NCBI GenBank assembly: GCA_963749775.1
Contig: CAVVPB010000003.1
Location: forward strand, 402,004-466,003
DNA: 64,000 nucleotides
Reading direction: 5' to 3'
DNA from: an uncultured Gammaproteobacteria bacterium
GTDB lineage: Bacteria > Pseudomonadota > Gammaproteobacteria > Steroidobacterales > Steroidobacteraceae
Positions 1,000 to 27,527 of this stretch are shown piece by piece (the first letter of the stretch is position 1; every line of letters starts with the position of its first letter). Made by a program: the position numbers and the translations under genes. Below the pieces are notes generated by a model. It made no database searches, had not been told where the DNA came from, and was given only the letters and a program-made list of their open reading frames with translations.

Positions 1000-1598
1000 G
1001 CGCCGTTCTCCCTAGATTGATTTCCGTCATTCGAACCCGTAAAAATCTGGCCCCGACGTCTTGGATACCCACGACGCCGGGCCAGAAGGGGCGATCGGTC
1101 TTGAAGTCGGGGGTCGACGAACGTCAAATATGTACCGTACGAATGGCGTCGTGCACAAAACTGAAGAGTTACCCTGCACGTTGGTACAAGCATCCATCGG
1201 TTGATCCAAGTCCCTGACTGCCCGAGCGGTAGTCTTGCGCGAACTTTTTAGCGAAACTATTGGATCAAGGACCTATTTGCGTATTCGTCGAAATTCAGAA
1301 TGAACCTGAAAATCGACGCATTGGCGCTTTTGGCAATGTCTCGCCAATCCGCTTGCGCCCTTTATCTACCGCGATCGCTTGACTTTCCCAAACCGGCCAG
1401 CAGGAAGCCGCGACAGCCGAATTGATTTGCGCAGTACGGGGAAAATGCGATATATAAGCGCAATAAGCTAAATAATGTTACATAATACAGTGCCTTGCAA
1501 GATGGGAGGCGGGACGCATTGGTAGAGGTCGTTCATAATCGGCCCTCTGCCATTACAGATCGACGCCGGGCGCGACGTGCGCCCCAAAGAGCGATGTC

Positions 1599-3571
1599 AT
1601 GGAGGATGGGGATTGGCTGATTGATGCCGTACGGCGGATGTTGCAGGCCGCGCCCGTAGCGTTGTTCGGCTGCTTGGCGTCTGCCCTGGTACTGCTCGGA
1701 AGCGAGCTTTACGCCGCTGAGCGTAATGACAGCGCACCGATCCGTATCCTGTTGCTCCACCCGGACGACTTGCACGCCCGTCAGGTGATAGCGGCGGATG
1801 CAGCCACTCGCAGTGCGCTAAGTGCGGCGCTGCGCCAGCCCCTCGAATTTAACTCCGAAGGCTTTGAGACCTTGCGATTGGCGGGAACACGATTGCAGGA
1901 GCCGGCATTCATCGAGCAGCTCCTCGAGAAGTACGCATCCCATCCTCCCGATCTGATCATCACGCACGCGGAAATGTTTAGCGTCGTGATGCGACACCGT
2001 GCAGAGCTTTGGCCGCAAACGCCGCTGATGTTTGTCGACGTGGCCGAGCAGCGTGTGCGCGCCGGTGAAGTGCCCGCGGGTATTCCGCGAGTAAGCGTCG
2101 ATGTGGATTTTGCCGGAACGCTTGAACTGGCGCGGCGCTTGCAACCGGAGGCGCGACGCGCGCTGGTCGTGTTTGGCACAACCGACCACGACCAATATTG
2201 GGGCCAGTATGTGATGCGTATGCTGGAGCCCTTTAGGAAGCGACATCGCGATCGAAGCAACTGACAAGCTTCCGATGGATGAGATCCTAAATGCGGTGGC
2301 GTCAGTCGATCGCAATACGATAGTGATCTATGTCAGTGTGGTGCGCGATCAAAGCGGTCAAGCCTACGTAAGCCAAGATGTCGCGCGAAGACTTGCTGAA
2401 ACATCGAAGGCACCCATGTACTCGGGCTACGGGTCACTCATGGGCCTCGGGATCGTGGGGGGGCTGATCACCCGAGCGAGCGATTCAAAAGCCTACGCGG
2501 TCGGCGAAATCGCCCGGCGGCTTCTCAATGGAGAACCCGCGGCGGACATTCCGCATGCGCCGGTGACGCAACCCGGCTGCGCGATCGATTGGAGAGCCGT
2601 TCAACGTTGGCATCTCGATGAATCGCGAATCCCAACGCTCGTGTCGGATCCTTTTCCGCGAAGCGTCTTTCATCTCGAGGCATCAAACTGAAGTGATGGC
2701 GCTGGTCGTCTTGGCCGCAATCCTCGGCAGCCTGTTGACCGGATGGCTGCGACAGCGCCGCCGGGGCGCAAGGGCAGAGGCGCAAGTGGAGCAGCAACGC
2801 GAAGAACTCGCTCACGCCGACCGGTTGGTCTCGGCGGGTCAGTTGACGGCTTCAATCACCCATGAGCTCAACCAATCCCTGACGGCGATTCTCAGCAACG
2901 CCGAGGCAGGCTCGATTCTCCTGTCACAGGATAATCCTCCGCTCGGCGAAATAAAGCAGATACTCGAGGATATCGGGGCCGATGATTTGCGGGCGGCCGA
3001 GGTCATCCGGCGACTTCGGAGTCTTTTGACCAAGAATGTGGTGGAAGTGCAGTCCGTTGACCCCAATGAGATCATTTCGGAAACGCTGAAGCTGCTGGAG
3101 CCCTTAACGAAGTCGCTGCAAATAACCGTCACTACCCGGCTGGTGGATCCCGCCCCGGTGCTCGAAGGCGATCGCGTCCAGTTGCAGCAGGTTCTGCTGA
3201 ATTTGCTGATGAACGCCATTGAAGCAACGAAGGATTCGTCACTCGAGCGCCGACAGATCAGTATCCATAGCGACGTGGATTCCGAAAGCAATTACAGCGT
3301 TTCGATTTCGGACAGCGGGCCGGGCATCCCGCCCGAGCAGATTGCGAATTTGTTCAAGCCGTTCTTTTCCACAAAGCCCAAGGGTATGGGTCTCGGACTG
3401 TTCCTGGTACGCACCATCGTCGAGGCCCACAGGGGTCAAGTCGGCGCCACAAGCGATGGGGTTGGCGCGACCTTTCACGTAACCATTCCCTTCGAAAAAA
3501 ATCGGTTCACCGGTGCGCTCTTGGGGCACATCACCGGGCCGCAGAGCGAGAATCTTGGGGCTGCGTCTTGA
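1599..3571 (+). pseudogene. Sensor histidine kinase (periplasmic ABC-substrate-binding-like domain, TM, HisKA, HATPase) interrupted by two frameshifts
   Basis: ORFs 1599-2264 (frame 3), 2275-2691 (frame 1) and 2618-3571 (frame 2) read as one protein when joined near 2235 (..MLEPF|GSDIAIEATDKLPMDEIL..) and near 2645. TM VMALVVLAAILGSLLTGWL. H-box SITHELNQSLTAILSNAEAG. Also LLMNAIEAT, DSGPGIP and GMGLGLFLVRTIVEAH. Confidence 0.7.
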
Positions 3572-3657
3572 GTACGCAGAGCGAATGCGCGCAATTGTGC
3601 GTGGCGAGATCGCGGGTGTCGTAATAACAATGAGGAGCCCAAGGGTATATGGGAATC

Positions 3658-3669
3658 AGACCTAGGTCT
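3658..3669. promoter_or_regulatory. Perfect 12-bp palindrome AGACCTAGGTCT (GGACC-WW-GGTCC box family)
   Basis: 59 nt upstream of the GTG of the MASE1 kinase gene. The context GGAATCAGACCTAGGTCTAACC resembles the reverse complement of the copy at 24168. Confidence 0.5.
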
Positions 3670-3727
3670 AACCTGCCGGCGCCTCCGCTGTCGCGCTAAG
3701 ATCAAGCGCGGGTGCCAGCGCAACGCC

Positions 3728-6247
3728 GTGTCTCTTAGAGTAGCTGCCGCTATGAGGAAGGACGCCAGTTTCGCATCTCAAGCCCTATCCGGCGACCATT
3801 CGGGTGCTGAAGACGGGCCGGACATCCGACCGATTGTCATCGGCAAATTGCAGCCGCCGGGGGAACCCACGGTTCGCGCAGCCGCCTGCGTCGCCGTTGC
3901 ATACTATCTAGCGGCGGAGCTCGGGGCTGCACTGGCATTTCCTTCGGCCTCGGTTTCCATGTTGTGGGCCCCCAACGCCATCCTGCTGGCCGCACTGGTT
4001 CTCGCCAAGCGCAAGACCTGGTGGGTCTACCTGGCCATGGTGCTGCCCGCGCACCTACTGGCACAGCTGCCCGACGTATCGATACAGATCGTTGCAATTC
4101 AATACATCGTCAATTGCTCCACCGCACTGATTGGCGCCTTCGCGCTATCCGCCTTCGCGCCGGACGCCGCACGTTTCAATACCCTGAAAGCGGCGATCGG
4201 GCTGATCGCGTTCGGCGCGCTGCTGGCCTCCGTTTCAACCAGTATCCTGCTGGCGGCGGCTTTTCTCGCCCTGGGCGTGATCCACACCTTCTGGGTCACC
4301 GTGTTCGCGCGCACTCTGACCAACGCGTTTGCAATACTCACCCTGGTGCCGCTCATTGTGCGTGCGGCAAACTGGATTCGCACCGGCGGCCGACCGGTGC
4401 CGGCCATGCGGGCAGCCGAGGGGTGCCTGCTATTCGTGACCATCGCTGCCGTCGGGATCGCGGTGTTCGCCGCACCGGTCATTGGTCTGACCAATTCGTC
4501 GGCGATCCTGTATGCGCCGTTGCCGATTTTACTGTGGGCGGCGATGCGTTTTGGCGTCGTCGGGGCGTGCGGCTCGATCCTGCTGTTGGGATCACTCGCC
4601 ACTTGGGGCCTTGTGAACGGCATGGGACCGTTCATTGCACTATCGCCGCCACAGAATGCCTTGTCCCTGGTGCTCTATTTCGTCGCTCTGTGCACGCCAC
4701 TGCTGCTGCTGGCCGCAGCGCTCGAGGAACGCGATGCATTGCAGTCGGCGAAGGGACCCATGCAGGCGCGGTTTCGAACGCTGTTTGCCCGAAATATCGT
4801 CCCGACCATCATTTGGCGTAGCGGCGGGCACATCCTTGATGCCAACGATGCTTTCTATCGCCTGACGGGATTTGAGCCAACCGATCTGGATGACGGCCAG
4901 ATTCAACTTCCATCATTGAGCGCGAGCACGGCGCAGTTGCCCGCGGAAACGAGCGATGCAAAATCCTGGATGCCGGATAGTGATTTGCAGGAGCGCGAAC
5001 TCGTGCTTCGCGACGGCCGCAAGAATCCGGTCTTGGTGCAGACATTGCCACTTCCCGGGCAGTCGAATGAACGACTCTCGTTTGCTCTGGATCTATCGCC
5101 TATTCGACGCGCTGAGGAAGCGCGCCACCGGGCCGATTTGCTGCATACCGCGATTCTTGGCTCCATCCGCGACCAGATCGTGGTGTTGGATGCCGCCGGA
5201 ATCATCATCGATGCAAATGATTCGTGGCGACGCTTCGTCGAGTGCGCCGCGATTCGTCCCTTCGAAAGCGCGCGCATCGGTAGCCAGTACTTGGAGCTAT
5301 GCGCGGCGGCGGCGGCGAATGGTGACGCCGTGGCCGCGGATCTGCTGGCGGCGGTTCGTGATGTACTCGACGGAATGAACGCGCGGCGGCGGCTTGAACT
5401 TGCCATTGAAACGGCCGACGGATTGTTGTGGTTCGAAATTTGCATAGAACCGTTGCGGCGTTCGGAGGGCGGGGCCGTCATCATTCGGTCGGATATCACC
5501 GAACGCAAGACAGCCACCCTACAGGCGGGCGAACAACGTCAGCAATTGGCGCTGCTCGGCCGCGCCGCAGTTCTGGGGGAACTCTCCGGCGCCTTCGCGC
5601 ATGAACTCAATCAACCCCTTACCTCGATTCTCGGTAATGCCGAGGCGGCTCTTCAGCTGTTGATGCGCGACTCTGCCGATTTACCTGAAATTCGCGACAT
5701 CTTGCGCGACATCATCCAGGACGATGTACGCGCCGCCGAGGTCATTCAGCGGCTGCGCTCGATGCTGGCCAGGGGCGAAATACAGCGCCAGCCCGTGGAC
5801 CTGAATCAGGTCGTGCGCGAGGTTTTGGAGCTTGCGCACAGCGACCTAATCACTCGGGGCGTCTCGGTCGGCATGCAGCTCGATCCCAATGCAGCGCGGG
5901 TACTTGCCGATAAAGTCCAAATGCAGCAGGTCGCTCTGAACCTCATCGTCAATGCGTGCGAGGCGATGTCCGGCGTGGTAGCATCCGAAAGAAAGCTTAC
6001 TATCGCAACGCAGCTTGCCGGCGACGGCAGCTTCATTGAGTGTTCCTTCTCCGACGCAGGGCGCGGCATCCCCTCGGGCGATCTGGAACGAATTTTTCAG
6101 CCCTTCGTGACGACCAAGAAACAAGGCTTGGGGCTTGGACTCGCGATCTGCCGCTCAATTGTCGAGGCGCACGGCGGCCGCCTGTGGGCTGAGCATGGGC
6201 CGAATGGCGGTGCCATCTTTCGGTTCACGGCCAGAATCAATGCATAG
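3728..6247 (+). CDS. MASE1-like membrane domain / PAS / PAS sensor histidine kinase
   Basis: 839-aa ORF. Polytopic N-terminal region ..VAVAYYLAAELGAALAFPSASVSMLWAPNAILLAALVL.. (MASE1-like). PAS-like segments. H-box FAHELNQPLTSILGNAEAA. Also LIVNACEAM, DAGRGIP and GLGLGLAICRSIVEAHGG. Start is GTG 3728 or ATG 3752. Confidence 0.85.
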   Translation: MSLRVAAAMRKDASFASQALSGDHSGAEDGPDIRPIVIGKLQPPGEPTVRAAACVAVAYYLAAELGAALAFPSASVSMLWAPNAILLAALVLAKRKTWWVYLAMVLPAHLLAQLPDVSIQIVAIQYIVNCSTALIGAFALSAFAPDAARFNTLKAAIGLIAFGALLASVSTSILLAAAFLALGVIHTFWVTVFARTLTNAFAILTLVPLIVRAANWIRTGGRPVPAMRAAEGCLLFVTIAAVGIAVFAAPVIGLTNSSAILYAPLPILLWAAMRFGVVGACGSILLLGSLATWGLVNGMGPFIALSPPQNALSLVLYFVALCTPLLLLAAALEERDALQSAKGPMQARFRTLFARNIVPTIIWRSGGHILDANDAFYRLTGFEPTDLDDGQIQLPSLSASTAQLPAETSDAKSWMPDSDLQERELVLRDGRKNPVLVQTLPLPGQSNERLSFALDLSPIRRAEEARHRADLLHTAILGSIRDQIVVLDAAGIIIDANDSWRRFVECAAIRPFESARIGSQYLELCAAAAANGDAVAADLLAAVRDVLDGMNARRRLELAIETADGLLWFEICIEPLRRSEGGAVIIRSDITERKTATLQAGEQRQQLALLGRAAVLGELSGAFAHELNQPLTSILGNAEAALQLLMRDSADLPEIRDILRDIIQDDVRAAEVIQRLRSMLARGEIQRQPVDLNQVVREVLELAHSDLITRGVSVGMQLDPNAARVLADKVQMQQVALNLIVNACEAMSGVVASERKLTIATQLAGDGSFIECSFSDAGRGIPSGDLERIFQPFVTTKKQGLGLGLAICRSIVEAHGGRLWAEHGPNGGAIFRFTARINA

Positions 6248-6298
6248 GACGAAGATCCACTATCGCTCGGCGGACGCGCGGGCGCCCAATGATGCACC

Positions 6299-6691
6299 AT
6301 GAGCACGGTGCGGCCACTCATTGCGATCGTCGATGACGAAGAGTCCGTCAGGCGCGCGCTGTCGCGCACGCTGCGCGCATCGCGCTTTGATGTCATGGTT
6401 TTCGCGTCCGGTCAGGAATTTCTTGATTCGATAGATACGCGTCGCCCCGACTGCGTGGTGCTGGATTTTCAGATGCCCGGGCTCACCGGCCGCGATGTGC
6501 AACGGCAATTGACTCTTGCCAAAATAAAATTGCCGATCATTGTTGTTACAGCGCATGACCAGCCAGCCATTCGTGAACAGTGCCTCGCCGACGGCGCGAT
6601 TGCCTATCTTGCAAAGCCGCTGCGCCGCGAACACCTGATTGCGATGATCAATTCAGCGTTGCACGAGAGCGATAGTGAGGCCAGCACTTAA
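6299..6691 (+). CDS. Single-domain response regulator (receiver only)
   Basis: IAIVDDEESVRRAL, CVVLDFQMPGLTG, IIVVTAHD and YLAKP. No output domain. Starts 51 nt after the kinase stop. Confidence 0.85.
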   Translation: MSTVRPLIAIVDDEESVRRALSRTLRASRFDVMVFASGQEFLDSIDTRRPDCVVLDFQMPGLTGRDVQRQLTLAKIKLPIIVVTAHDQPAIREQCLADGAIAYLAKPLRREHLIAMINSALHESDSEAST

Positions 6692-6699: not shown

Positions 6700-6944
6700 T
6701 TACGGGATGCGCAATTTTTGACCTGGGAATATCTCTTCGCTTTCCGAGAGTACATCACGATTCGCTTCGAGAAGCGTGGCGGCGTGCCTTGAATCGCCGT
6801 AGTGCGCTTCGGCGATTTTGGATAACGTCTCGCCGCGCTTTACAATGTGATACTGCAGGAAATTCTCGAAATCCGGGCGGCACCGGGTTCGAGTGGAGCA
6901 AATTCGGCCTGCGAATCATGGAATGATCGCTCTATGCCCGGCAT
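6700..6944 (-). pseudogene. LysM-domain ORF without a clean start (not in the ORF track; probable frameshift near 6877)
   Basis: The minus strand of 6703-6852 translates to YHIVKRGETLSKIAEAHYGDSRHAATLLEANRDVLSESEEIFPGQKLRIP followed by TAA (6700-6702). This is a textbook LysM as in YgaU/Kbp C-termini. That frame has no start codon. An ATG at 6944 (another frame) or AGGAG-N8-ATG at 7012 (third frame) could be the original start. Confidence 0.4.
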
Positions 6945-7567
6945 CGAACAGCGATGGGGCTCTCGCGCGGCGCACTCAATCCACGCAGCGTCGCAGATAA
7001 TTCTAGACGCATCGTCTTTTCTCCTCGCTCGGGTTCACCTATTTCACGCTGTAACCGCGCCCTTGCATGCAAGCGCCGAACAGTGCGCTGATAGTCGCTG
7101 AGTTTTTGGTTGGCGGCAGCCTGCTGCGCGGCCTGCTGCTGCAGAGCGGCTTGCTGCGCCTGCTGTTGCGCTTGCTCTTGCTTGCGCTTGCGCGCACCGC
7201 CGCCCACCGCGCCCACCGCGGCTCCGATCGCCGCTCCTTTGCCGGCATTGCCTGCGATCGCGCCGAGCGCGGCTCCCCCGGCCGCACCGCCAACAGTGCC
7301 TCTGGCAACTTGGCCGTCGGACGCGGGGGGCGCCGTCTGGGCCTGCTGCGTCTGCTGAGCCTGCTGCGCCTGTTGTTGCTGTAAGACTTTGACGGGGTCA
7401 TAGCCGGTCTGCTGCGTGGCCCAGGTGTTGCACTCGGACTTGTCTTTTTGCATCTGCTCATCGCTTTGGCCATTGGCCGGATATATGGCAGGCGGACTTG
7501 GCGCGGCCGTCGGCGCAGGAGTCTGCGCAAAGGCTTCGGCAGCTGCGTAAAGCACCAATAGGTGCAA
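6932..7567 (-). CDS. Secreted Gln/Ala-rich glycine-zipper protein. The native C-terminus probably lies in another frame, ending at 7039.
   Basis: ..GQSDEQMQKDKSECNTWATQQTGYDP.., then the glycine zipper GTVGGAAGGAALGAIAGNAGKGAAIGAAVGAVGGG. After ..KLSDYQR (about 7083) the family-typical tail ALFGACMQGRGYSVK* is encoded in the +1 frame (stop 7039-7041). The listed frame instead runs on as RTVRRLHARARL... TTG start, weak signal peptide. Confidence 0.55.
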   Translation of the reverse strand: MHLLVLYAAAEAFAQTPAPTAAPSPPAIYPANGQSDEQMQKDKSECNTWATQQTGYDPVKVLQQQQAQQAQQTQQAQTAPPASDGQVARGTVGGAAGGAALGAIAGNAGKGAAIGAAVGAVGGGARKRKQEQAQQQAQQAALQQQAAQQAAANQKLSDYQRTVRRLHARARLQREIGEPERGEKTMRLELSATLRGLSAPRESPIAVRCRA

Positions 7568-7656
7568 ACCGAGTGAATTCCAGCGCGACGCAACAAGTCA
7601 ATCTCCCCGCATGTCGATCTAGTCTGAATAACGAAATACGGCGAAGCGGAGCGCCT

Positions 7657-7750
7657 TGCCATCGGACTTTGGTCCCATCGCCGTCGCTGCCATCGGAACG
7701 TGGTCGCTTCGCGGTCGCTGCCACTGGCACTTTGATCCCATCACAGTGAC
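7657..7750. repeat. Three tandem degenerate repeats of about 31 bp, each carrying a GGAC..GGTC-type half or full box
   Basis: tgccatcggactttggtcccatcgccgtcgc / tgccatcggaacgtggtcgcttcgcggtcgc / tgccactggcactttgatcccatcacagtgac. They lie in the divergent promoter region between 7567(-) and 7831(+). Confidence 0.7.
7664..7675. promoter_or_regulatory. GGACTTTGGTCC box
   Basis: The context CATCGGACTTTGGTCCCATCG is nearly identical to CATCGGACCTAGGTCCCATCG at 11371-11391. It lies 97 nt upstream of the glycine-zipper gene and 156 nt upstream of the GH63-like gene. Confidence 0.5.
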
Positions 7751-7830
7751 TACCATAGGGCTTAGGTCCAATTCCAGCCGCGATCCTTGACTGGTATTTC
7801 TACAAGATCACCTACGAGAAGGACGAGCGC

Positions 7831-10505
7831 ATGAGTGACGAACGAGCGCGTTTGGGCGAGGCGCGGGACAAGGGCGTCCCGTGGAAAAAATGGGGTCCCT
7901 ACCTCAGCGAGCGGCAGTGGGGGACGGTACGAGAAGATTACAGTTCTTCAGGTGACGCCTGGAACTATTTCACCCATGACCACGCGCGCTCGCGAGCCTA
8001 CCGGTGGGGCGAGGACGGACTGGCAGGTATCTCCGACGATCAGCAGCAGCTCTGCATTTCCCTCGCGCTTTGGAACGGAAAAGATCCGATCATCAAGGAG
8101 CGCTTATTCGGACTGACGAACAACGAAGGCAATCACGGCGAGGACGTGAAGGAGTACTACTTCTATCTCGACAGTACGCCCACTCACTCCTACATGAAAT
8201 ACCTGTACAAGTACCCGCAGCGCGCCTATCCCTACGAAAATCTTATCGCGACCAACAAGCAGCGCTCTCGTTTGGATCTGGAATACGAACTGCTCGACAC
8301 GGGTGCATTTGACGAAAATCGGTATTTTGACGTTTTTGTCGAGTATGCCAAGGCGTCGCCGGAAGACATTCTTATTCAGATCACCGTCCACAATCGAGGT
8401 CCCGGAGGCTGCCACGCTGCACGTGCTTCCGACACTCTTGTTTCGCAACACATGGGCGTGGACTGCGGGGGCGACCAAGCCGATGCTGCGCGAGAACAAG
8501 CGCGGCGTGATCTCGATATCGCATCGTGATCTTGGCGAGCGCGTGTTGGAATGCGAAGGCGCCGGTGAGATCCTCTTTACCGAGAACGACACCAACTCGC
8601 AGCGTCTTTTCGGCACTCCGAATGCGACGCCGTACGTCAAGGACGGCATCGACGAGTTTCTCGTGCACGGTCACCACGACGCGGTGAACCCAGAACACGT
8701 CGGTACGAAGGCGTGCGCTGATTACATTCTCAATGTGGACGCGCAAGCATCAAAAACGATTCGCCTCAGATTTCGCGAGCCAGCGGCCAACGGCGCATTC
8801 GGCAGTGATTTCGATGCGATCATGCAGAGTCGGCGGCAGGAGGCAGACGCGTTTTACTCTACGGTAATCCCGACCTCGCTCGATCGCGACGCCGCGCTGG
8901 TGATGCGTCAAGCGCTGGCGGGGATGCTTTGGTCAAAACAGTTTTACAATTACGATGTCGAACGGTGGCTGAAACGGGACGCCACCGGTTCAGGCAATGG
9001 CAACGGCCAGGTGGCACTGCGCAACGAGCATTGGCGTCATCTGGATAACGCCGACATCGTGTCGATGCCGGATAAATGGGAGTACCCCTGGTACGCCGCC
9101 TGGGATCTTGCCTTTCACGTGATCGCGCTGACGCTGGTGGACGAGGACTTCGGCAAACAGCAGCTGGACTTGCTTCTCCGGGATGCCTACTTGCATCCGA
9201 GCGGGCAGCTCCCCGCTTATGAATGGAATTTTGGCGACGTCAACCCGCCGGTGCACGCTTGGTCCACCATTTTTACCTATCGTCTCGAGCAGGCGCAGGG
9301 CAAAAAAGGAGACGTCGAGTGGCTTCAGCGCTGCTTCCACAAACTGATGCTCAATTTCACCTGGTGGGTCAACCGCAAAGACGTTGCGGGCAAAAACGCA
9401 TTCGAAGGCGGCTTCCTCGGCCTCGATAATATCGGGGTGTTCGACCGCAGTGCGCCTTTGCCGACGGGGGGCTATTTGGAGCAGGCCGATGGCACCGCGT
9501 GGATGGCGCTTTTTTGCCAGAACATGATGGAAATCGCCGCGGAATTGTCGATGACCATGCCGGCTTACATCGATATGTTGCTCAAATTTGTTGAGCATTT
9601 TCTGCTGATCGCCTCAGCCCTGATGCATACGGGCGACGACACGGGAATGTGGGACGAGCAGGACGGCTTTTTCTATGATGTGCTGAGATTGCCGGATGGG
9701 CGGTCAGAACGGCTGAAGGTGCGGTCCATGGTGGGACTGCTGCCAATGTGTGCGGCAACGACGTTCGACGGGAAGGTCCTGTGCGAAGCATCCGGAAGTC
9801 GCCCAACGCGCGATGAGGATCATTGACGCGCGCCCGGAGCTGCGCACCTTCATCCACGATCCGGTTGCGATCGGCCCGACCGGCCGCCGTCTAGCCTCCG
9901 TTCTGGACGAGACGAAGCTGCGCCGCGTGCTCGCGATCATGCTCGATGAGAAAGAATTCTTAAGTCTCCACGGTATTCGCGCGCTGTCCCTGGTCCATGC
10001 CGAGCGGCCTTATGTGTTTCGTACCGGCGATCAAGAGCATCGCGTTTCGTTTCTCCCGGGCGAGTCCGATAGCGGCATGTTCGGCGGCAACTCAAACTGG
10101 CGTGGTCCGGTGTGGATGCCGGTGAACGCCCTGATTATTCGCGCACTGCTGCAGTACTACCTCTACTACGGCGACACCTTCATGATCGAATGCCCCACCG
10201 GATCCGGCCGGCAGATGAACTTGTACCAGGTGGCCGAGGAAATTGAGCGCCGGCTGGCGGGCATTTTTCTGCGGGACGCGGAGGGTCACCGTCCCGTGTA
10301 TGGCGGAACGCAGAAGTTTCAGGAAGATCCCTACTGGCGCGATCTCATCTTGTTCTACGAGTACTTTCACGGCGAAAACGGCGCAGGGATTGGCGCCAGC
10401 CATCAAACCGGATGGACCGGAATTGTCGCCAGGATGATGCATATGTTTGCAACCGTGCCTGCGGATCGGCTGCTCAGCAGCCGCGGCCTGCTACCTGCGA
10501 ATTGA
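7831..10505 (+). pseudogene. GH63-clan (MGH1-like) glycoside hydrolase of about 890 aa, interrupted by two frameshifts
   Basis: ORFs 7831-8529 (frame 1), 8303-9826 (frame 2) and 9750-10505 (frame 3) join at about 8400 (..[19 protein letters not shown].., extra base in ggtcccgga) and about 9775 (..TTFDGKVL|AKHPEVAQRAM..). Family recalled from [39 protein letters not shown] and GFLGLDNIGVFDR. Confidence 0.75.
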
Positions 10506-11374: not shown

Positions 11375-11386
11375 GGACCTAGGTCC
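11375..11386. promoter_or_regulatory. Perfect 12-bp palindrome GGACCTAGGTCC
   Basis: 134 nt upstream of ATG 11241 (minus-strand gene). Its flanks are shared with the 7664 copy. Confidence 0.5.
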
Positions 11387-17197: not shown

Positions 17198-17224
17198 GAG
17201 TGCTTCGATACTAGGAGACCTTTT

Positions 17225-21042: not shown

Positions 21043-21513
21043 TCAGTGCGGCGGCAGCCCTTGCCCCCCAGTGGTGGCACCCGGAGCGCCGTAAATCGAG
21101 AAGCGGTTCTCCGAGACCCAGAAGGTCACGGGATCCCCCACCTTCAGCTCGGAAAACTTCTCCTGCTGCCCGTTGACGAGCAGTATCGCGTCGGGGTTTG
21201 GTTTGAAGCTGATCGTATCGAGCGCATCACCGCGGACATTGAAGACTTGTAAAACGAGGTACGCAGGATCGGTCAGGTAGACCTTACCTTTGAACTTCGC
21301 ATATTTCACGCCCTTGTATACGCGGGCCTCCTGACAGGCGGCGGGGGCCTTCGGGTACTTATCGAGGAAATCATGACTGAATGTGAGACTGGTGCAGTTA
21401 ACCTTGGGCAATTTCTCGGGATCAGGCATCTCCGACTGCGCGCGCGTGTACTGCGCACCGATTGCCAACGGCAGCGTAACTGCCAAACTAGCCAGCCACC
21501 GATTAATTTTCAT
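21043..21513 (-). CDS. Secreted hypothetical protein (156 aa)
   Basis: GAGGAG-N6-ATG at 21513. Signal peptide MKINRWLASLAVTLPLAIGAQY. The ORF-track extension to 21723 lacks an RBS. Confidence 0.6.
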   Translation of the reverse strand: MKINRWLASLAVTLPLAIGAQYTRAQSEMPDPEKLPKVNCTSLTFSHDFLDKYPKAPAACQEARVYKGVKYAKFKGKVYLTDPAYLVLQVFNVRGDALDTISFKPNPDAILLVNGQQEKFSELKVGDPVTFWVSENRFSIYGAPGATTGGQGLPPH

Positions 21514-21756
21514 TGGATGCTCCTCTTGAAGTGGGTCGCGATAGCTTCCATTGCCATCTCTGTTGCTTTGCAAAGCACGATGCATTGAGGCCACCCGCCT
21601 CTCCGTGCACGTTGCGGTATTGAACCGCTTTTGCGCCGCGCATAGATATAGGTCCAAGTACCTACGAATCCGCTGCCCATGAGAAGCGTCTATGTCGCAA
21701 TAGAAAAAAATGAGTGGTTTCAACTGTTTGAGGCCGGGGCAGCGATCATTTACTGG

Positions 21757-21768
21757 GGACCAAGGTCC
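21757..21768. promoter_or_regulatory. GGACCAAGGTCC box
   Basis: Lies in the 467-bp divergent region between 21513(-) and 21981(+). Weaker copies are GGTCCAAGTACC at 21651-21662 and GACCAAGGCC near 21930. Confidence 0.5.
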
Positions 21769-21980: not shown

Positions 21981-22637
21981 GTGCGCACGCGCATCGCGGC
22001 TACTGTAGTCGGCGTTGCGGTATTTCTGGGAGGTTCGGCGTGGGCCGATACATCCCTCGAATTCTGGCCAGAACTCGACACCTGGGTCAGGCTTACGGAT
22101 CCGGCGCAGTTGTTGTTCATCGTCTCCGGCGATCGTGACGCGGATAGCGGCGATAAGACCGATGGCAAATTTGGCGTTTATCTCGACTACCGATCAAGCG
22201 ATCACATCTCGTTGCGCGCCGGTTATGTTCTTCAGCGCAACCTCGCCGAATCGCCCGGCGAGAAGGACACGCTCGAGAATCGGTTGGTGTTCGACTTTAA
22301 CTATCGTTGGCAGATCGGGGAGCATGGGCAACTCGCCGATCGCGTCAGGTTGGATCTTCGCGATATGGAGGGCGAGACCTCATACCGAATTCGGAATCGG
22401 CTAAGGTATGCGCAGGAGTTTAAGCTCACACAGGTCACGTTGATTCCCTATGCCAGTATTGAGGCGTACTACGACAGTCGGTTCGACACGATCAGCCGTT
22501 ATCGCACAGAGGTCGGTACAACCGTTCCATTCACGCGCAGGTTCGCGAGTGATTTCTACGTGGCCTGGCAACACGATACTCAACCGAAGGACCAGAAGAT
22601 CGCCGCTCTCGGCCTAACGTTGACCTTGAAGTTTTAG
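21981..22637 (+). CDS. Putative outer-membrane beta-barrel protein (DUF2490-like)
   Basis: GTG start. Signal peptide VRTRIAATVVGVAVFLGGSAWA. Alternating amphipathic strands. C-terminal ..LGLTLTLKF ends in Phe. Confidence 0.6.
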   Translation: MRTRIAATVVGVAVFLGGSAWADTSLEFWPELDTWVRLTDPAQLLFIVSGDRDADSGDKTDGKFGVYLDYRSSDHISLRAGYVLQRNLAESPGEKDTLENRLVFDFNYRWQIGEHGQLADRVRLDLRDMEGETSYRIRNRLRYAQEFKLTQVTLIPYASIEAYYDSRFDTISRYRTEVGTTVPFTRRFASDFYVAWQHDTQPKDQKIAALGLTLTLKF

Positions 22638-22657: not shown

Positions 22658-23356
22658 TTACAAACTCAGGCCCAATTGCCACGGATCGCCGGGAAGTCGG
22701 GCATGACCTGGGTCGTTCTGCAGCGGAACCGAAATTGATTCAGCGCCGGAATCTTGAGCCCGCGAGAGCAGACCGACCAACGCCGCCGCCGACCTGACCT
22801 GCAGTTTTTCCATGGCCCGCCCGCGGTGCACCTTAATCGTCTTTTCCGCAGCGCCGAGTTGTCCAGCGATCTGCTTGTTGAGCATTCCTTTGGCCACGAG
22901 TTCAATCACCTGGCGTTCGCGCGGAGTGAGTCTTTCAATTCGTTCGACGATGGCATATCGCTTATGCTGAAGCGCACGCGCGAGCACATCCTTCGAAATG
23001 GCCTCACGCACACTCGTGAGGAGGTCCGCGGCGCGAACCGGCTTCGGCAAGAAGCTGATGGCGCCGGCCTTCATCGCCTGCACGCTCATCGGGATGCTTC
23101 CGTGGCCCGTGATAAAAATGATCGGCCGCTCAGACCCGGTGCTCACTAGAGCCCGGTGCAGATCGAGGCCGCTCATATCGGGCATCACGACATCCGTGAT
23201 GAGACAGCCGGGGGTCTCCGGATCGTGCTCAGCCAAAAATTCGCATGCCGAGGTCCAGGCATGCACCGCGAAGCCGCTCGCTTGCAGAAGCCGCTCGAGT
23301 GCGTGCAGTACCGACGGCTCATCGTCCAGCAGGAAGACAACGGAAGTTCTGTCCAT
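22658..23356 (-). CDS. FixJ/NarL-family response regulator (receiver + LuxR-type HTH)
   Basis: VVFLLDDEPSV, CLITDVVMPDMSG, IIFITGHG, FLPKP, then LTPRERQVIELVAKGMLNKQIAGQLGAAEKTIKVHRGRAMEKL. Confidence 0.9.
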   Translation of the reverse strand: MDRTSVVFLLDDEPSVLHALERLLQASGFAVHAWTSACEFLAEHDPETPGCLITDVVMPDMSGLDLHRALVSTGSERPIIFITGHGSIPMSVQAMKAGAISFLPKPVRAADLLTSVREAISKDVLARALQHKRYAIVERIERLTPRERQVIELVAKGMLNKQIAGQLGAAEKTIKVHRGRAMEKLQVRSAAALVGLLSRAQDSGAESISVPLQNDPGHARLPGDPWQLGLSL

Positions 23357-23471
23357 GTCAAATGACTCCCTTCAAACATCGGGGCCCTACACAGCACCCG
23401 ATCCGCATCTGGCTTTGTTCGTTGCTGACTATACATAACGGCTGTGACCGCCCGCAATCTCGAATTACACT

Positions 23472-23490
23472 GGTCCTAGGACCAAGGTCT
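23472..23490. promoter_or_regulatory. Two overlapping boxes, GGTCCTAGGACC and GGACCAAGGTCT
   Basis: 116 nt upstream of the FixJ/NarL-type regulator start (23356, minus strand). This is the only place in the window where two boxes overlap. Confidence 0.55.
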
Positions 23491-23648
23491 TATAGACAAG
23501 CGCTTCATTGCGCGTTTGTGGGCGCAAACATCGAGATTTGAGGATAGAAAGTGCAGCCAGTGCGGCCTGCGTTTGAGTATGCATCTACGGTGCCAACGTA
23601 GATAGCCGCTCGCGGGAGAAAATTCACCGATTAGGGCTGACCCGGCGT

Positions 23649-24104
23649 CTAGGTTAGGCGCAGCAACACGGCGCTAAACGCCACCAGTCCGATCACTGCA
23701 ACGACAATCGTGATCACGAGAGTCGGGGTCTGCTCCGCGACGGGTGCCATGTGACCCGTGGCGCTAATCCCTGCGAGCGCGCGGTAGGGCTCCTGCCACA
23801 GATAGCGCACTACACGCCGGAATTGAATGCCCGAGATGATCAGCGTGAGCACGCCGGCACCGATTAAGCTCAGACCGAGATACCGCGGCGTCTCCGGCCG
23901 GTATGCGGGCGCCACCCCCGCCGTGGTATTCAAATGCTGAAAGAATTGAACGATCGTGAACCCGAATCCGATCATGGACACGCCGGTGCGAAGCCAGGCC
24001 ATCATGGTGCGCTCGACGGCCAGCCGCGTTCGAATCCAGCCGAAATGGCTGTCTGATGTCATGCGCACTTCGAAACGATCCGATTGCGTTTGGGCCATGT
24101 GCAT
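23649..24104 (-). CDS. DUF202 (YidH-like) membrane protein
   Basis: ..FGWIRTRLAVERTMMAWLRTGVSMIGFGFTIVQFF.. plus two further TM segments. Confidence 0.7.
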   Translation of the reverse strand: MHMAQTQSDRFEVRMTSDSHFGWIRTRLAVERTMMAWLRTGVSMIGFGFTIVQFFQHLNTTAGVAPAYRPETPRYLGLSLIGAGVLTLIISGIQFRRVVRYLWQEPYRALAGISATGHMAPVAEQTPTLVITIVVAVIGLVAFSAVLLRLT

Positions 24105-24167: not shown

Positions 24168-24179
24168 AGACCTTGGTCC
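24168..24179. promoter_or_regulatory. AGACCTTGGTCC box
   Basis: 64 nt upstream of the DUF202 gene (-) and 97 nt upstream of the BASS gene (+). Context CATCAGACCTTGGTCCGATTCC. Confidence 0.5.
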
Positions 24180-24275: not shown

Positions 24276-25160
24276 ATGAACGCCGTCAAATGGCTGTCAC
24301 TCGCGCTGCAGTTCAGCATCATGCTCATGGTGCTGGGATTCGGGTTGACGGCGACGTGGCATGAGGCCACCTACCTGCTGCGTACCCCCAAGCTGCTCGC
24401 GCGCACCGTGGTGTCGATGAACATCATCATGCCCGTCATTGCCGCCGTGCTGGCATCGATCTTTCCGCTGCCGCTCGAAGTGAAGGCGGCGTTGGTGGCC
24501 TTGGCCCTCTCACCCGTACCGCCGATGATCCAAAAGAGTCAGCTGACGGCCGGTGGTCGACGGGAATATGTGGTCGGATTGATGGTGGCCATGTCGTTGG
24601 TCGCGATCATACTGGTGCCGCTGGCAGTGCTGATTTTTAATCGTGTATTGGGATCCGCGGCCGTGGTCACTCCGCTGACGGTGGCGAAGATCATGCTGAA
24701 GACCGTGTTCGCGCCGTTGTTCGTCGGCCTGCTGATCCGACAATGGTTCCCGGCGGCCGAAAAGGCGTCCGGCGCGATTCTCGCCGTAGCCGGCATTTTG
24801 CTCGTCCTCGGAGTTGCGCTGCTGTTGATCGGGCTATGGCCGGTTACCCGCTCCTACTTGGGTAACGGCGTGGTGCTAATGCTCACGGTGCTCGCGGCCA
24901 TTGGTCTTGGCGTTGGACATCTCATGGGAGGTCCTTTGCCGGGCGATCGAACGGTCCTGGCGATATCAACCTCTTCGCGGCATCCCGCCGTGGCTCTGGC
25001 GATTGCAACCTCCGGTCCGCTCACCGAGGATCTGGTCAAACAGGAGCTTGCGGTCATTTTGCTCTATGTTCTGGCCGCGATGATTCTCGCCATCCCTTAC
25101 AAAAAATGGCGCGCACGCACGGCCGGCGCGCCGCTCCGGGATGCGAGCAACAAAGCGTGA
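24276..25160 (+). CDS. Bile acid:sodium symporter (BASS/SBF-like) family transporter
   Basis: GAGGA-N7-ATG at 24276. Polytopic MNAVKWLSLALQFSIMLMVLGFGL.... The ORF-track extension back to 24084 is non-membrane Arg/Ser-rich sequence. Confidence 0.65.
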   Translation: MNAVKWLSLALQFSIMLMVLGFGLTATWHEATYLLRTPKLLARTVVSMNIIMPVIAAVLASIFPLPLEVKAALVALALSPVPPMIQKSQLTAGGRREYVVGLMVAMSLVAIILVPLAVLIFNRVLGSAAVVTPLTVAKIMLKTVFAPLFVGLLIRQWFPAAEKASGAILAVAGILLVLGVALLLIGLWPVTRSYLGNGVVLMLTVLAAIGLGVGHLMGGPLPGDRTVLAISTSSRHPAVALAIATSGPLTEDLVKQELAVILLYVLAAMILAIPYKKWRARTAGAPLRDASNKA

Positions 25161-26125
25161 ACGCCAACAGCGCGCCGGGCGGCGCCGAGTCCGATCTGTC
25201 GCACGACATGGTGCGAATCCGCGGCGGCACGTTTCGAATGGGGTCCGACAGCCACTATCCAGAGGAGGCTCCGGCACACAATGTACGCGTGCACGGATTT
25301 TGGATCGATCGGTGTGCCGCTACCAACGCGGACTTTAAGCGTTTCGTTGACGCGACCCGATATGTCACGCTGGCCGAGCGGCCCGCGAATGCCGCGGATT
25401 ATCCGGACGCGAAGCCCGAACTGCTGGTGCCGTCATCAGTGATGTTTAAAAAGGCCGACGGGCCGATCGATCTGCACAATCATTACAACTGGTGGACGTA
25501 CGTGGCCGGCGCCGACTGGCGGCATCCGCGTGGACCGCAGAGTTCATTGCAAGACCTGTGGGACCACCCCGTCGTGCACGTCGCCTTCGAAGACGCTGAA
25601 GCCTATGCGCACTGGGCCGGCAAGTCGTTGCCCACCGAAGCGGAGTGGGAGTTCGCGGCGCGCGGCGGCTTGGAGGCGGCCGAATATGCGTGGGGTGGGG
25701 AGATGATGCCGGGCGGCAAGGCGATGAGCAACACCTGGCAGGGCGAGTTCCCCTGGCAGAATTTGCTGGAGGACGGCTATGAATGGACGGCGCCGGTGGG
25801 CTCCTTCCCGCCCAATGGCTATGGCCTGCATGAGATGACCGGTAATGTTTGGGAATGGACGACCGACTGGTACCAGGATCACGGCAAGATTCAAAAGGCC
25901 TGCTGCACGCTGGAAAATCCACGCGGCGGGGTGCGCGAAAATAGCTACGATCCGCGCAATCCTGCGGTGCGCATTCCACGCAAGGTCATGAAGGGCGGCT
26001 CATACCTGTGCGCACCGAATTATTGCCGGCGCTACCGACCGGCCGCGCGAATGCCGCAGCCCGTCGACACCTCGACCTGCCACTTGGGTTTCCGCTGCGT
26101 CAGCCACGCCCCTGCAGAACGCTGA
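25157..26125 (+). CDS. Formylglycine-generating-enzyme (SUMF1/FGE) family protein
   Basis: MVRIRGGTFRMGSD..EAPAHNVRVHGFWIDRCAATNADF..HPVVHVAFEDAEAYAHWAGKSLPTEAEWEFAARGG..GNVWEWT..RKVMKGGSYLC. GTG 25157 overlaps the BASS stop (GTGA). ATG 25208 is an alternative start. Confidence 0.8.
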   Translation: MNANSAPGGAESDLSHDMVRIRGGTFRMGSDSHYPEEAPAHNVRVHGFWIDRCAATNADFKRFVDATRYVTLAERPANAADYPDAKPELLVPSSVMFKKADGPIDLHNHYNWWTYVAGADWRHPRGPQSSLQDLWDHPVVHVAFEDAEAYAHWAGKSLPTEAEWEFAARGGLEAAEYAWGGEMMPGGKAMSNTWQGEFPWQNLLEDGYEWTAPVGSFPPNGYGLHEMTGNVWEWTTDWYQDHGKIQKACCTLENPRGGVRENSYDPRNPAVRIPRKVMKGGSYLCAPNYCRRYRPAARMPQPVDTSTCHLGFRCVSHAPAER

Positions 26126-26140
26126 GCGGGGTGCCTAGGG

Positions 26141-26509
26141 GTGGAAATGCTGTTGCATACCATCGCCCAGGGCGTAGCGCTCGGGATCGAGGCGATCGCG
26201 ATTGCAGTGATCGCCATTGGCGCAATCGAGGCGGTTGCCGGCATCGCCCGCATGGTGGCGCGACCCGGTGAGACGAAACACGAGCGGCGTCATGTCTGGC
26301 TGGAATTCGCCCGCTGGCTGGTCGCGGGACTCACGTTTCAATTGGCAGCGGACATTGTCAATACATCATTCGCACCGACGTGGGATGAAATAAAGCGTCT
26401 CGGCGCGATCGCCGTGATCCGAACATTCTTGAGCTACTTCTTGGATCGGGAATTGGCCGATACGCGCGGTGTGCAGGAGGCTGACAAAGCAGCGGTAAGC
26501 CCGCCATGA
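26141..26509 (+). CDS. DUF1622 membrane protein
   Basis: ..GIEAIAIAVIAIGAIEAVAGI..RHVWLEFARWLVAGLTFQLAADIV..AIAVIRTFLSYFLDRE. Confidence 0.65.
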   Translation: MEMLLHTIAQGVALGIEAIAIAVIAIGAIEAVAGIARMVARPGETKHERRHVWLEFARWLVAGLTFQLAADIVNTSFAPTWDEIKRLGAIAVIRTFLSYFLDRELADTRGVQEADKAAVSPP

Positions 26510-26618: not shown

Positions 26619-26646
26619 ATTCGCGTTGAAGGATTTCGGGAACGGC

Positions 26647-27120
26647 TCAGCGGTTCAGCGCCAGTTTCGAGACTTCCTGCCATTGATCGGTTGCACGCGC
26701 GATGTTGCCGGGAACGTCTTTCTTCCAATTCTTGCGAGCATCGAGATCGCTGAACATGTAGAGCTTGCCATCAACGACCGCAAACACCCGCGGGTGCGCG
26801 CCAATCTTATGTCCCTGCGAGACGCCATAGGCACAAAAGCCGCCAAACTGCGGTGCGTAGCGCTCCGGGTCACTCACAAACGAATCCAGATGCGACCCTG
26901 TAATGAAGTAGAATTTTGAACCCTGGTAGGTGTAGCTGTGTTCCTTTACGCCTAGTACCGGATCAGGCGCGGGCGTGAAGTAGGAGAGCGCGTCGTAGCT
27001 TTTGAGGGCAACGCCGTTTTCCTCGAAAAAGTCTCCTGCCAATGCGTAAGTGGCCGTAAGGCTTAAAATCGCAAGCGAGGAAAGACGAAATATTGATCGG
27101 TAAGTCACGGTAGTCTCCAA
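26647..27120 (-). CDS. Periplasmic YHS-domain protein
   Basis: Signal peptide ..FRLSSLAILSLTATYALAG. ..YDALSYF..YTYQGSKFYF..ERYAPQFGGFCAYGVSQGHK..VVDGKLYMF. Start is TTG 27120 or the GTG four codons in. Confidence 0.75.
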   Translation of the reverse strand: METTVTYRSIFRLSSLAILSLTATYALAGDFFEENGVALKSYDALSYFTPAPDPVLGVKEHSYTYQGSKFYFITGSHLDSFVSDPERYAPQFGGFCAYGVSQGHKIGAHPRVFAVVDGKLYMFSDLDARKNWKKDVPGNIARATDQWQEVSKLALNR

Positions 27121-27188
27121 GTGGTCATGACAAAAATATGCAGAAGATCAGCAACCCGGCCCGCACCGGCGAATTTGCGTCAAACGCT

Positions 27189-27311
27189 TCAAGGCGCTTG
27201 GTTTAGCTCCGCCTTCGCCGCGATCGAATCATTGACTGCGATGACGGCAAAGGGCATCAGCGCAAGAATCATCGAAAGAAATACTGCACCGAGGTTGGCG
27301 AGGGCTTTCAT
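27189..27311 (-). CDS. Possible 40-aa hydrophobic peptide
   Basis: GGGAGA-N5-ATG, then MKALANLGAVFLSMILALMPFAVIAVNDSIAAKAELNQAP. No family recognised. Confidence 0.25.
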   Translation of the reverse strand: MKALANLGAVFLSMILALMPFAVIAVNDSIAAKAELNQAP

Positions 27312-27527
27312 GAGCATCTCCCGACTGTGGACCTTGGAGGCACTGTAGTCGGCGACTTGGCATGCCGTGCGGCGATGCGCCAAACCGGCCTTTCTGCGGC
27401 GTGAACGGCAGGGGAGGAGCGCGAACGGTGCCTAAGACTTCAGGAGTGGCTTAGCTTGCGCGCAAGCAAGGGACCCGTGATCTGATGGCATTTGGGATAG
27501 CGCCGCCGCTTAATGGAGCACGCGTTT

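Follow-up and report, generated by a model that had tools for sequence, protein, structure and literature searches.

What recognises the 12-base palindrome GGACC-WW-GGTCC, copies of which stand ahead of about ten genes in a 64,000-nt stretch of an uncultured Steroidobacteraceae gammaproteobacterium (contig CAVVPB010000003.1, positions 402,004 to 466,003; this whole stretch is the window hereafter)? A preliminary description of this DNA had presented the palindrome as the box of a candidate regulon, controlled by a FixJ/NarL-type response regulator encoded among the same genes. All eleven sequences quoted there were recovered at their coordinates, and the box occurs far more often than expected by chance. 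We find it very probable that the boxes are operators for a dimer of the phosphorylated FixJ/StyR-like regulator encoded at 22658–23356. This protein is the best candidate binder because of the conservation of the boxes in close relatives, their linkage to similar regulators in other phyla, the association between recognition helix and box, and the published DNA specificity of the Erythrobacter litoralis protein EL222. The geometry of the predicted promoters likewise supports the proposed regulon.

Allowing at most one mismatch, GGACCWWGGTCC matches the window five times against 0.35 expected, a count reached by none of 100 shuffles. With two mismatches there are 12 matches against 6.3 expected, so the weak copies could not be judged from mismatch counts and a 20-bp weight matrix was built. 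It was trained on 19 sites of other organisms, leaving out the sites of the window and of L001, the contig of a close relative. Scanning the window gave nine sites that reach 10 bits, where 0.31 would be expected from a first-order Markov simulation that keeps dinucleotide frequencies; the next-best score is 6.8 bits, leaving a clean gap. All nine lie between 1.2 and 24.2 kb. To the right of 24.2 kb no strong site was found, the best weight-matrix score being 5.1 bits. The nine strong sites all fall outside genuine coding sequence, while a generous map of open reading frames (ORFs) covers ~87% of the window. The sole formal overlap is that of the site at 24168 with an over-extended ORF beginning at TTG, the start of the BASS protein being plausibly the ATG at 24278.

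The shared flanks noticed earlier are real and extend the consensus to (c/t)AT(c/g)-GGACC-WW-GGTCC-(g/c)AT(g/a); in a repeat analysis of the window, similarity from box to box ends by ~20–30 nt. Two copies previously called weak proved to score well (1262, 18.3 bits; 7758, 17.1 bits), and a third, 21651, reaches only 4.4 bits, although the block around it is nearly identical in L001. The fourth, 27329, which had been tied to a YHS gene, was dropped: it has no weight-matrix score, and no site precedes the YHS gene in L001. The original list had also missed a conserved box at 6247, at the gene for a single-domain receiver (6299–6691), which together with a second kinase gene (HK2, 1599–3607) was added to the candidate targets.

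The regulator has the NarL/FixJ architecture, Pfam assigning Response_reg to residues 7–116 (3.8e-26) and GerE to residues 142–194 (1.1e-18). Its phospho-acceptor pocket, DD...D...T...K, is conserved (LLDDE, ITDVVMPDM, FITGHG, LPKP), and it aligns with StyR and FixJ over residues 5–200. The best NCBIfam model is FixJ (NF006900), at 187.5 bits against an equivalog cut-off of 255 and thus below threshold; FixL is the best NCBIfam model for the cores of both kinases. When the full-length protein was compared with solved structures, StyR (1yio, 1.5e-49) came ahead of FixJ (3.5e-33) and DevR (3c3w, 2.6e-15), and the helix-turn-helix (HTH) alone is closest to StyR, then EL222 (E = 2.6e-13). No other GerE-type HTH with the recognition helix AEKTIKVHRGRAMEKL is encoded in the 64 kb. 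By its homologues, the regulator comes from a source in or close to the Steroidobacteraceae.

This helix is nearly identical to that of EL222, SEKTVKMHRGLVMEKL. A HMMER alignment places the EL222-type helix E-K-T-V/I-K-x-H-R-G in the regulator (AEKTIKVHRG against SEKTVKMHRG), and the recognition helices align without gaps as A-E-K-T-I-K-V-H-R-G in the regulator, S-E-K-T-V-K-M-H-R-G in EL222 (8a5r/3p7n), A-E-V-T-V-K-V-H-R-H in StyR and A-E-K179-T-V-K182-N183-Y-V-S in DosR, so that the regulator's two helix lysines stand opposite DosR Lys179 and Lys182 (EKTIKV against EKTVKN). The 12-bp DNA consensus of EL222 is RGNCYWWRGNCY (PMC10521638, citing Rivera-Cancel 2012). The window contains nine exact matches to this consensus against 1.8 expected; eight of the nine are the boxes at 3658, 7664, 7758, 11375, 21757, 23472, 23479 and 24168, and every box first listed as strong, including both halves of the double box 23472/23479, fits it exactly. 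The ninth match (GGCCTAAGGTCT, 46573–46584) scores 0.3 bits, lies inside a small ORF and is probably due to chance. The StyR/TodT box is ATAAAC-N4-GTTTAT, with Lys175, Val176 and His179 as proposed contact residues (PMC5874301), and the DosR box is TTSGGGACTWWAGTCCCSAA (PMC2275270), whose bases are touched by Lys179, Lys182 and Asn183 (PMC2275270, PMC4082495). All three boxes share an AC-N4-GT core, which is preceded by GG for EL222 and DosR, with Lys at the first position, and by AA for StyR, with Val. This pattern agrees with the helix–box association described below and would point to a contact between the first helix lysine and the GG half-site.

Each of these systems resembles the present one in part. 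EL222 is a one-component photoreceptor with LOV instead of REC and light-driven dimerisation, whereas phosphorylation by a MASE1/PAS kinase would drive dimerisation of the regulator. There is also far less degeneracy in the natural boxes, with their GGACC/GGTCC half-sites and conserved flanks rich in A and T, than in the EL222 consensus. StyR and TodT share the succession of REC, Q-linker and GerE, StyR being the closest solved full-length protein, and their box is likewise an inverted repeat with the same core and spacing. The StyR residues Lys175 and Val176 are conserved in the regulator. The half-site, however, is AAAC and not GGAC, StyR has Val where the regulator has its first Lys and His179 where it has Gly, and the StyS/TodS double kinases and the catabolic regulon are different.

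The preliminary description had likened the box to that of DosR/DevR of Mycobacterium tuberculosis. Both the consensus it gave and the common GGAC-N4-GTCC architecture stand (PMC2275270), but the regulator is not a DosR orthologue, and EL222 and StyR/TodT are closer. DosR is a NarL/LuxR-type regulator with a 20-bp palindrome of GGAC-N4-GTCC core, helix lysines that match, and an autoregulated stress regulon. DosR sites overlap the -35 element. It is only a distant homologue (E = 2.6e-15), with Asn183 where the regulator has Val. The two boxes have the core and the WW centre in common, and differ in the bases flanking the centre (T/A in DosR, C/G here) and in the outer flanks (TTS / S-AA in DosR; AT-rich, (c/t)AT(c/g), in the window). 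DosR further depends on the haem-GAF kinases DosS/DosT and on hypoxia, whereas the local kinases are a MASE1-PAS-PAS-HisKA protein and a periplasmic-domain kinase, in which searches with Pfam and NCBIfam found no GAF or haem-binding domain. Hypoxia is accordingly not indicated as the signal.

The boxes recur in close relatives, taken as Steroidobacteraceae contigs encoding regulators 61–92% identical to that of the window: L001 (92%) and L002, L085/86, L087 and L088 (61–70%). Their loci are dense in boxes, with 3–11 sites that reach 9 bits in 20 kb, and in five related genomes the box was found upstream of orthologues (Table 1). When the window is aligned pairwise with L001, the boxes stand out as fully identical islands: the double box is a 31-nt island conserved throughout, box 24168 lies inside a wholly conserved 30-nt block, and box 21651 belongs to a 60-nt block that is nearly identical. 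The box at 3658 has counterparts ahead of the MASE1-kinase orthologues of L088 and L087; that at 6247 is kept identical or near-identical, with the same flanks, in L088 (4778) and L087 (9393), and the receiver itself is 67–81% identical to the relatives' receivers, with an intact phospho-acceptor pocket. The upstream region of the L088 HK2 orthologue contains a box (9681). Boxes also precede both orthologues of the helical secreted protein (L088 3403–3939, 58% identity; L085 11434–11751) and both of the 156-aa secreted protein (L088 12129–12587, 63%; L085 12082–12555, 57%), the DUF2490 genes of L001 and L088 and the Gly-zipper gene of L088 (19555). DUF202 recurs in box-rich neighbourhoods of L001, L086, L087 and L088, and the SBF/BASS-FGE-DUF1622 gene set adjoins boxes in L001, L087 and L088. 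The autoregulation suggested earlier gains support from the double box conserved in L001 and the perfect box before the L002 regulator gene, both of which point to a predicted operator at the regulator's own promoter.

In the window the MASE1-kinase gene lies 16 kb from the regulator gene; in L002, L085, L087, L088 and, by its gene calls, the P0003 contig it adjoins the regulator and receiver genes. Since kinase, receiver and regulator are adjacent in these more distant relatives, the three form one conserved module, and the MASE1-PAS-PAS kinase at 3728–6247 is probably the cognate sensor of the regulator. Accessory families recurring around the module are DUF202, DUF1622, FGE-sulfatase, SBF, DUF2490, Gly-zipper, Ysc84, DUF2092 and DUF6515.

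A scan of genome contigs with the regulator returned FixJ-like regulators of 42–56% identity from many phyla, with no Steroidobacteraceae orthologue among the matches listed. Among the same matches, at least 12 loci carry a perfect or near-perfect tattGGACCAAGGTCCaata 30–90 nt past the regulator stop codon; their hosts are Acidobacteriaceae, Bacillota, Syntrophaceae, Deltaproteobacteria, Planctomycetia, Binatia and a betaproteobacterium. The gene order is that of a kinase with a FixL-like core (sensor ETR1_N, GAF or PAS), the regulator, the box, a TAnnnT hexamer after ~25 nt and a receiver-only gene, whose product is 31–51% identical to the window receiver. The receiver is the one target common to every phylum examined. 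When all regulators fetched were compared, a box scoring 12 bits or more and no further than 600 nt from the gene was present for 23 of 35 with an E-K-T-x-K helix and for 7 of 59 others (Fisher p ~1e-7), and no box accompanied any fetched regulator in which Ile, Ala, Val or Thr takes the place of the first lysine.

At least 120 stretches were obtained from a metagenome contig scan for TATKGGACCAAGGTCCMATA. In 83 metagenome copies, TAnnnT was present 25–26 nt past the core 29 times out of 80 in the AA direction and 6 times out of 83 in the opposite one, an orientation bias which indicates that the near-palindrome is used directionally. A regulator lies just upstream of the box in 7 of 72 cases and a receiver just downstream in 12 of 67; most boxes are thus scattered sites of a regulon, and not every locus has box and signalling genes side by side. 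In these soil-metagenome loci (L089–L168) the exact 20-mer boxes mostly stand ahead of small signal-peptide or membrane proteins of many unrelated families, and only ~15% ahead of receiver or regulator genes. A homologue of the helical protein follows an exact box in L091, and an HK2 homologue follows a box in L144.

The distance from box to promoter is nearly fixed. At 15 cross-phylum sites a -10-like hexamer begins ~25 nt (23–27) past the 12-bp core, often with a -35-like TAGACA or TTTACA beginning 2 nt past the core, and at seven window sites the hexamer lies 24–27 nt past the box (Table 1). With the hexamer at -12 to -7, the box would occupy ~-49 to -38, centred at ~-43.5, just upstream of the -35 element. 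Relatives keep several of the hexamers at an unchanged distance across spacers that have diverged: AGTAAAAAAT, 25 nt downstream of box 11375, is identical in L088, and CATATT, 25 nt past box 21757, is conserved in L001. The hexamer 27 nt past box 3658 is TAAGAT in the window and TAACAT in L088; TTCAAT occurs 25–26 nt downstream of box 21651 and likewise after L088 box 12052. Box 24168 is followed on the minus strand by TAGGTT at 24 nt (TAGGGT in L001) and on the plus strand by TCCATG at 23 nt (TCCAAT in L088). No clear -10 hexamer was seen at the standard distance from box 1262.

Downstream of box 6247 and its counterparts a conserved CCCAAT or TCCAAT stands at 26–27 nt, with the ATG 7–9 nt further. 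The distance from box to receiver ATG is only 37–40 nt (window 6259–6301, L087 9405–9444, L088 4737–4777, L034 10652–10693), and in several lineages the receiver may thus be translated from an mRNA with little or no leader. At the regulator gene the arrangement is different: the double box lies ~21 nt upstream of a weak -35 (TTGCGG, 18-nt spacer, TATAGT), which puts its centres at ~-63.5 and -56.5. Between the double box and the conserved core promoter, the window (23357–23648) and L001 (9743–10000) differ by an indel of exactly 10 nt. This is one helical turn, so the phase is kept, as would fit a class I-type face-of-helix requirement.

In the divergent Gly-zipper/GH63 region (7657–7781), four box-like elements, at 7664, 7695, 7727 and 7758, are 31–32 nt apart, or about three helical turns. 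By analogy with StyR, this spacing may reflect cooperative or looping binding.

Several observations weigh against assigning the boxes to the local regulator as an activator. The training sites of the weight matrix came from scanning with the window's motif and are independent of the window sequences, not of the motif idea. Of the 35 E-K-T-x-K regulators, 12 lack a strong box within 600 nt, and a box does accompany seven regulators with other helices; in most of these seven the first lysine is replaced by Gln or Arg, or the second by Asn. No strong box directly precedes the regulator or receiver gene in L085/86. The -10-like hexamers CCCAAT, TAGGTT and TCCATG are poor, and site 1262 and the regulator's own site depart from the -43.5 geometry. 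Several target genes are frameshifted, which may reflect partial decay of the regulon or an error-prone assembly. Finally, L002 and L085/86 each encode two same-helix regulators within a few kb, and the window is 64 kb of a genome in which a same-helix paralogue could share the boxes or own them. These last points would suit another GerE/LuxR-type protein of the same specificity encoded outside the window, either a paralogous response regulator or an EL222-like LOV-HTH protein, with the local regulator merely one of its targets. EL222, which is no response regulator, does recognise the same consensus, and most exact metagenome boxes are not beside a regulator gene. We nevertheless consider such a binder unlikely, since box and regulator gene are physically linked at 12 or more loci of several phyla, the helix–box association is strong, and the window sites cluster around kinase, receiver and regulator, with no second HTH of this kind encoded in the window. 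A paralogue carrying the identical helix would bind alongside the local regulator and not in its place.

A regulator bound to these boxes could also mainly repress or act dually, by -35 occlusion or by looping between phased sites, as StyR does with STY1/STY3. StyR represses through tetramer-mediated looping (PMC2442086) and EL222 from a site inside the core promoter (PMC5001607); in the window the end of the box at ~-38 abuts the -35 hexamer, and the elements in 7657–7781 are spaced ~31 nt apart. Yet the box always stays clear of both the -10 hexamer and the spacer, the -35 is poor or missing and the -10 departs from consensus, as is typical where a promoter depends on an activator, and the fixed 25-nt distance and orientation bias match class II activation, LuxR, EL222 and StyR (STY2) activating from the same position. 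Weak core promoters with the box at a set place upstream speak for activation, and we rate a mainly repressive or dual role as very unlikely. It is hardly credible, lastly, that the palindrome has no regulatory role and is a repetitive extragenic palindrome (REP) or miniature inverted-repeat transposable element (MITE), an RNA hairpin or terminator, a chance pattern or a pair of GGWCC restriction sites. A short perfect palindrome could fold (stem AUUGGAC, loop CAAG), and in other phyla the box stands just past the 3' end of a gene; the copies, however, are found in either orientation and keep a fixed distance from a -10-like hexamer, every site is intergenic, and the enrichment is far beyond shuffles. 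A genome-wide REP/MITE-type repeat, which the preliminary description had raised as a counter-argument, was rejected on the repeat analysis of the window, where at most 31 nt are shared at 68–81% identity and the sites are intergenic and positioned relative to start codons. An RNA element or terminator was rejected because Rfam gave no match, no T-run follows the box, and asymmetry in many of the flanks (tatG...Aata) disrupts pairing. As a pentamer, GGWCC shows slight depletion in the window and no enrichment (95 observed against 126 +/- 11 in a second-order Markov model), which speaks against restriction sites and means that the enrichment of the box is not a by-product of pentamer abundance. 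The alphaproteobacterial EcfG promoter (GGAAC-N16-CGTT), considered for the stress-regulon-like gene content, was rejected on the sequences and on the gammaproteobacterial taxon.

With the local regulator as the preferred binder, the following scheme can be proposed. A signal, presumably membrane-associated since the sensor has a MASE1 domain, would be sensed by the MASE1/PAS kinase, perhaps also by HK2, and the kinase would phosphorylate the regulator. By homology, each GerE HTH of the dimer would read one RGNCY half-site, here GGACC. To judge from the geometry, the bound dimer would activate sigma-70 promoters from ~-43.5, the position used by LuxR, by EL222 in engineered promoters and by StyR at STY2: EL222 activates a sigma-70 promoter once its site replaces the lux box over the -35 element (PMC5001607), and StyR activates from the high-affinity site STY2 at ~-40 (PMC2442086). 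The predicted regulon, its membership judged from site position and conservation in relatives, comprises a signalling part (MASE1 kinase, second kinase, single-domain receiver and regulator) and an envelope and secreted part (Gly-zipper and DUF2490 proteins, two small secreted proteins, DUF202, BASS-FGE-DUF1622 and the GH63-like hydrolase). Activation of the kinase and regulator genes would create positive autoregulation, the regulator's double site acting in a class I-like manner, and the induced receiver would provide delayed negative feedback, as phosphate sink or kinase inhibitor.

The FixL-FixJ system of Caulobacter crescentus offers a parallel, FixJ and FixL being the best models for the regulator and the kinase cores, although its sensor is a haem-PAS protein, of which there is none here. 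Caulobacter FixT is induced through FixK. The window receiver gene carries the regulator's own box, so that feedback would be direct. FixT is reported to be a pathway-induced single-domain receiver that feeds back on the kinase FixL (PMC7078487). DNA binding, the sign of regulation and the feedback role of the receiver are read here from sequence and are to be taken as predictions.

The general kind of system is textbook, namely a LuxR/FixJ-type regulator with an inverted-repeat operator, activation from the lux-box position and autoregulation, and the DNA specificity is biochemically known for EL222; no established concept is overturned. Within the literature searched, three things appear to be new: an operator for a large and uncharacterised subfamily of FixJ-like regulators that spans phyla and for which no DNA site is described there, the cassette of kinase, regulator, box and receiver, and the Steroidobacteraceae-like regulon of envelope and secreted proteins. 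Literature searches on the exact box strings returned only unrelated eukaryotic papers, and one combining MASE1, FixJ and regulon gave nothing relevant. Through the analysis, an uncharacterised two-component system from an uncultured gammaproteobacterium of soil gains a predicted operator, promoter architecture and first regulon. The proposed correspondence between an E-K-T-x-K helix and GGACC-WW-GGTCC would join EL222, DosR and StyR/TodT under one recognition logic; a regulator that directly induces a receiver-only protein would have negative feedback built in; and the natural boxes and promoters could be used as parts for EL222-type optogenetic or two-component synthetic circuits.

The comparison across phyla also raises the possibility, for and against which we see the chances as evenly balanced, that box, E-K-T-x-K regulator and receiver-only gene form an ancient self-contained cassette, in which the kinase sensor has been exchanged (MASE1, ETR1_N, GAF, PAS) while the 20-bp operator, the -43.5 position and the direct feedback target stayed near-invariant. 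A one-residue code, with Lys at the DosR-Lys179 position specifying GG and Val, Ile or Ala other half-sites, would then predict the operator class. If true, the cassette would range over Proteobacteria, Acidobacteriota, Bacillota, Planctomycetota, Verrucomicrobiota-like bacteria and candidate phyla, and the code would cover thousands of FixJ-like regulators and also explain the specificity of EL222.

The genes and boxes of the window are collected in Table 1; Pfam and NCBIfam confirmed the gene list of the preliminary description.

Table 1. Genes and boxes of the window, with -10-like hexamers and boxes at the corresponding genes of relatives (bits, weight-matrix score; an empty strand cell means none assigned)
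Feature	Coordinates	Strand	Assignment, or score and context	-10-like hexamer (strand; gene)	Boxes in relatives
HK2, sensor histidine kinase, HisKA/HATPase core	1599..3607	+	Pfam; periplasmic-domain kinase		
MASE1-PAS-PAS histidine kinase, FixL-like core	3728..6247	+	Pfam, NCBIfam		
Single-domain receiver, REC only	6299..6691	+	Pfam Response_reg		
Glycine-zipper (Omp-type) protein	6932..7612	-	Pfam Gly-zipper; start codon uncertain		
GH63/mannosylglycerate-hydrolase-like	7831..10505	+	Pfam MGH1-like_GH, Glyco_hydro_63 on separate ORFs		
Secreted helical protein, family unassigned	10720..11241	-	Orthologues in L088, L085		
156-aa secreted protein	21046..21513	-	Orthologues in L088, L085		
DUF2490 outer-membrane-type protein	21981..22637	+	Pfam		
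FixJ/StyR-like response regulator, REC + GerE HTH, recognition helix AEKTIKVHRGRAMEKL	22658..23356	-	Pfam, NCBIfam		
DUF202 (YidH-like) membrane protein	23649..24104	-	Pfam		
Probable operon: SBF/BASS transporter, FGE-sulfatase-domain protein, DUF1622	24278..26509	+	Pfam		
Box GGATCAAGGACC	1262..1273		18.3 bits; non-coding; 337 nt upstream of HK2 gene		
Box AGACCTAGGTCT	3658..3669		16.1 bits; upstream of MASE1 kinase gene; exact fit to RGNCYWWRGNCY	TAAGAT, 27 nt (+; MASE1 kinase)	MASE1 kinase: L088 7329, L087 6769, L085 7133/7193
Box GGACGAAGATCC	6247..6258	+	10.2 bits; kinase/receiver junction, overlapping kinase stop codon; 40 nt before receiver start codon	CCCAAT, 26 nt (+; receiver)	Receiver: L087 9393, L088 4778 (identical core and flanks), L002 9170
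Box GGACTTTGGTCC	7664..7675	-	19.3 bits; AA strand directed to Gly-zipper gene	TATTTC, 25 nt downstream (-; Gly-zipper)	Gly-zipper: L088 19555
Two degenerate box-like elements, 7695 and 7727	7695..7738		-1.9 and 6.8 bits		
Box GGGCTTAGGTCC	7758..7769	+	17.1 bits; upstream of GH63/MGH1-like gene; exact fit to RGNCYWWRGNCY	TATTTC, 25 nt downstream (+; GH63)	
Perfect box GGACCTAGGTCC	11375..11386	-	22.0 bits; 134 nt upstream of helical-protein gene	TAAAAA (-; helical protein)	Helical protein: L088 3305, L085 11857
Weak degenerate box GGTCCAAGTACC	21651..21662	-	4.4 bits; 137 nt upstream of 156-aa protein gene		156-aa protein (with 21757): L088 12052, L085 11857
Perfect box GGACCAAGGTCC	21757..21768	+	12.3 bits; divergent region; AA strand directed to DUF2490	CATATT (+; DUF2490)	DUF2490: L001 11536, L088 17914; 156-aa protein (with 21651): L088 12052, L085 11857
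Overlapping double box GGTCCTAGGACC / GGACCAAGGTCT	23472..23490	-	6.5 (23472) and 19.0 (23479) bits; 116 nt upstream of regulator gene		Regulator: L001 9854/9861, L002 9871 (perfect box, 130 nt upstream)
Box AGACCTTGGTCC	24168..24179		19.0 bits; divergent DUF202/BASS region	TAGGTT (-; DUF202)	DUF202/BASS operon: L001 9210, L088 16401
Boxes after the regulator gene in other phyla (among the matches listed)	L016 3234, L018 10617, L024 2147, L027 10650, L034 10640, L037 10674, L046 10617, L075 10663, L065 10642, L033 3229, L025 3878, L007 1406				

Two of the target genes are interrupted. The 686-aa HK2 protein of L088 matches the window in three frames by tblastn (1632–2243, frame 3; 2245–2688, frame 1; 2642–3607, frame 2), and the GH63-like gene is read in three overlapping frames (7831–8529, 8303–9826, 9750–10505). 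These splits reflect either pseudogenes or assembly indel errors.

Kinase and receiver are parted from the regulator by a box-free metabolic block (11682–20713) encoding an MBL hydrolase, a polyketide-cyclase-like protein, a GMC oxidoreductase, DUF5996 and a SulP-amidase protein. The last is a single 1074-aa ORF on the minus strand (17489–20713) joining a SulP/STAS transporter to an amidase; L001 has two overlapping genes (12483–14159 and 14143–15711), and the ORF is possibly a fusion or a frameshift artefact. The L001-conserved 60-nt block (window 21596–21665, minus strand) also holds a small hairpin, GCGGT-TCAAT-ACCGC, without an Rfam match, and could be promoter or 5'-leader sequence for the gene of the 156-aa protein. 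Near the left end, a DUF6515-like secreted protein (215–781) contains eight tandem 18-nt units (361–540), translated as repeated hexapeptides rich in Asn (NANANR / NVNTNQ); in L088 the orthologue of this protein belongs to a box-preceded operon with DUF2092.

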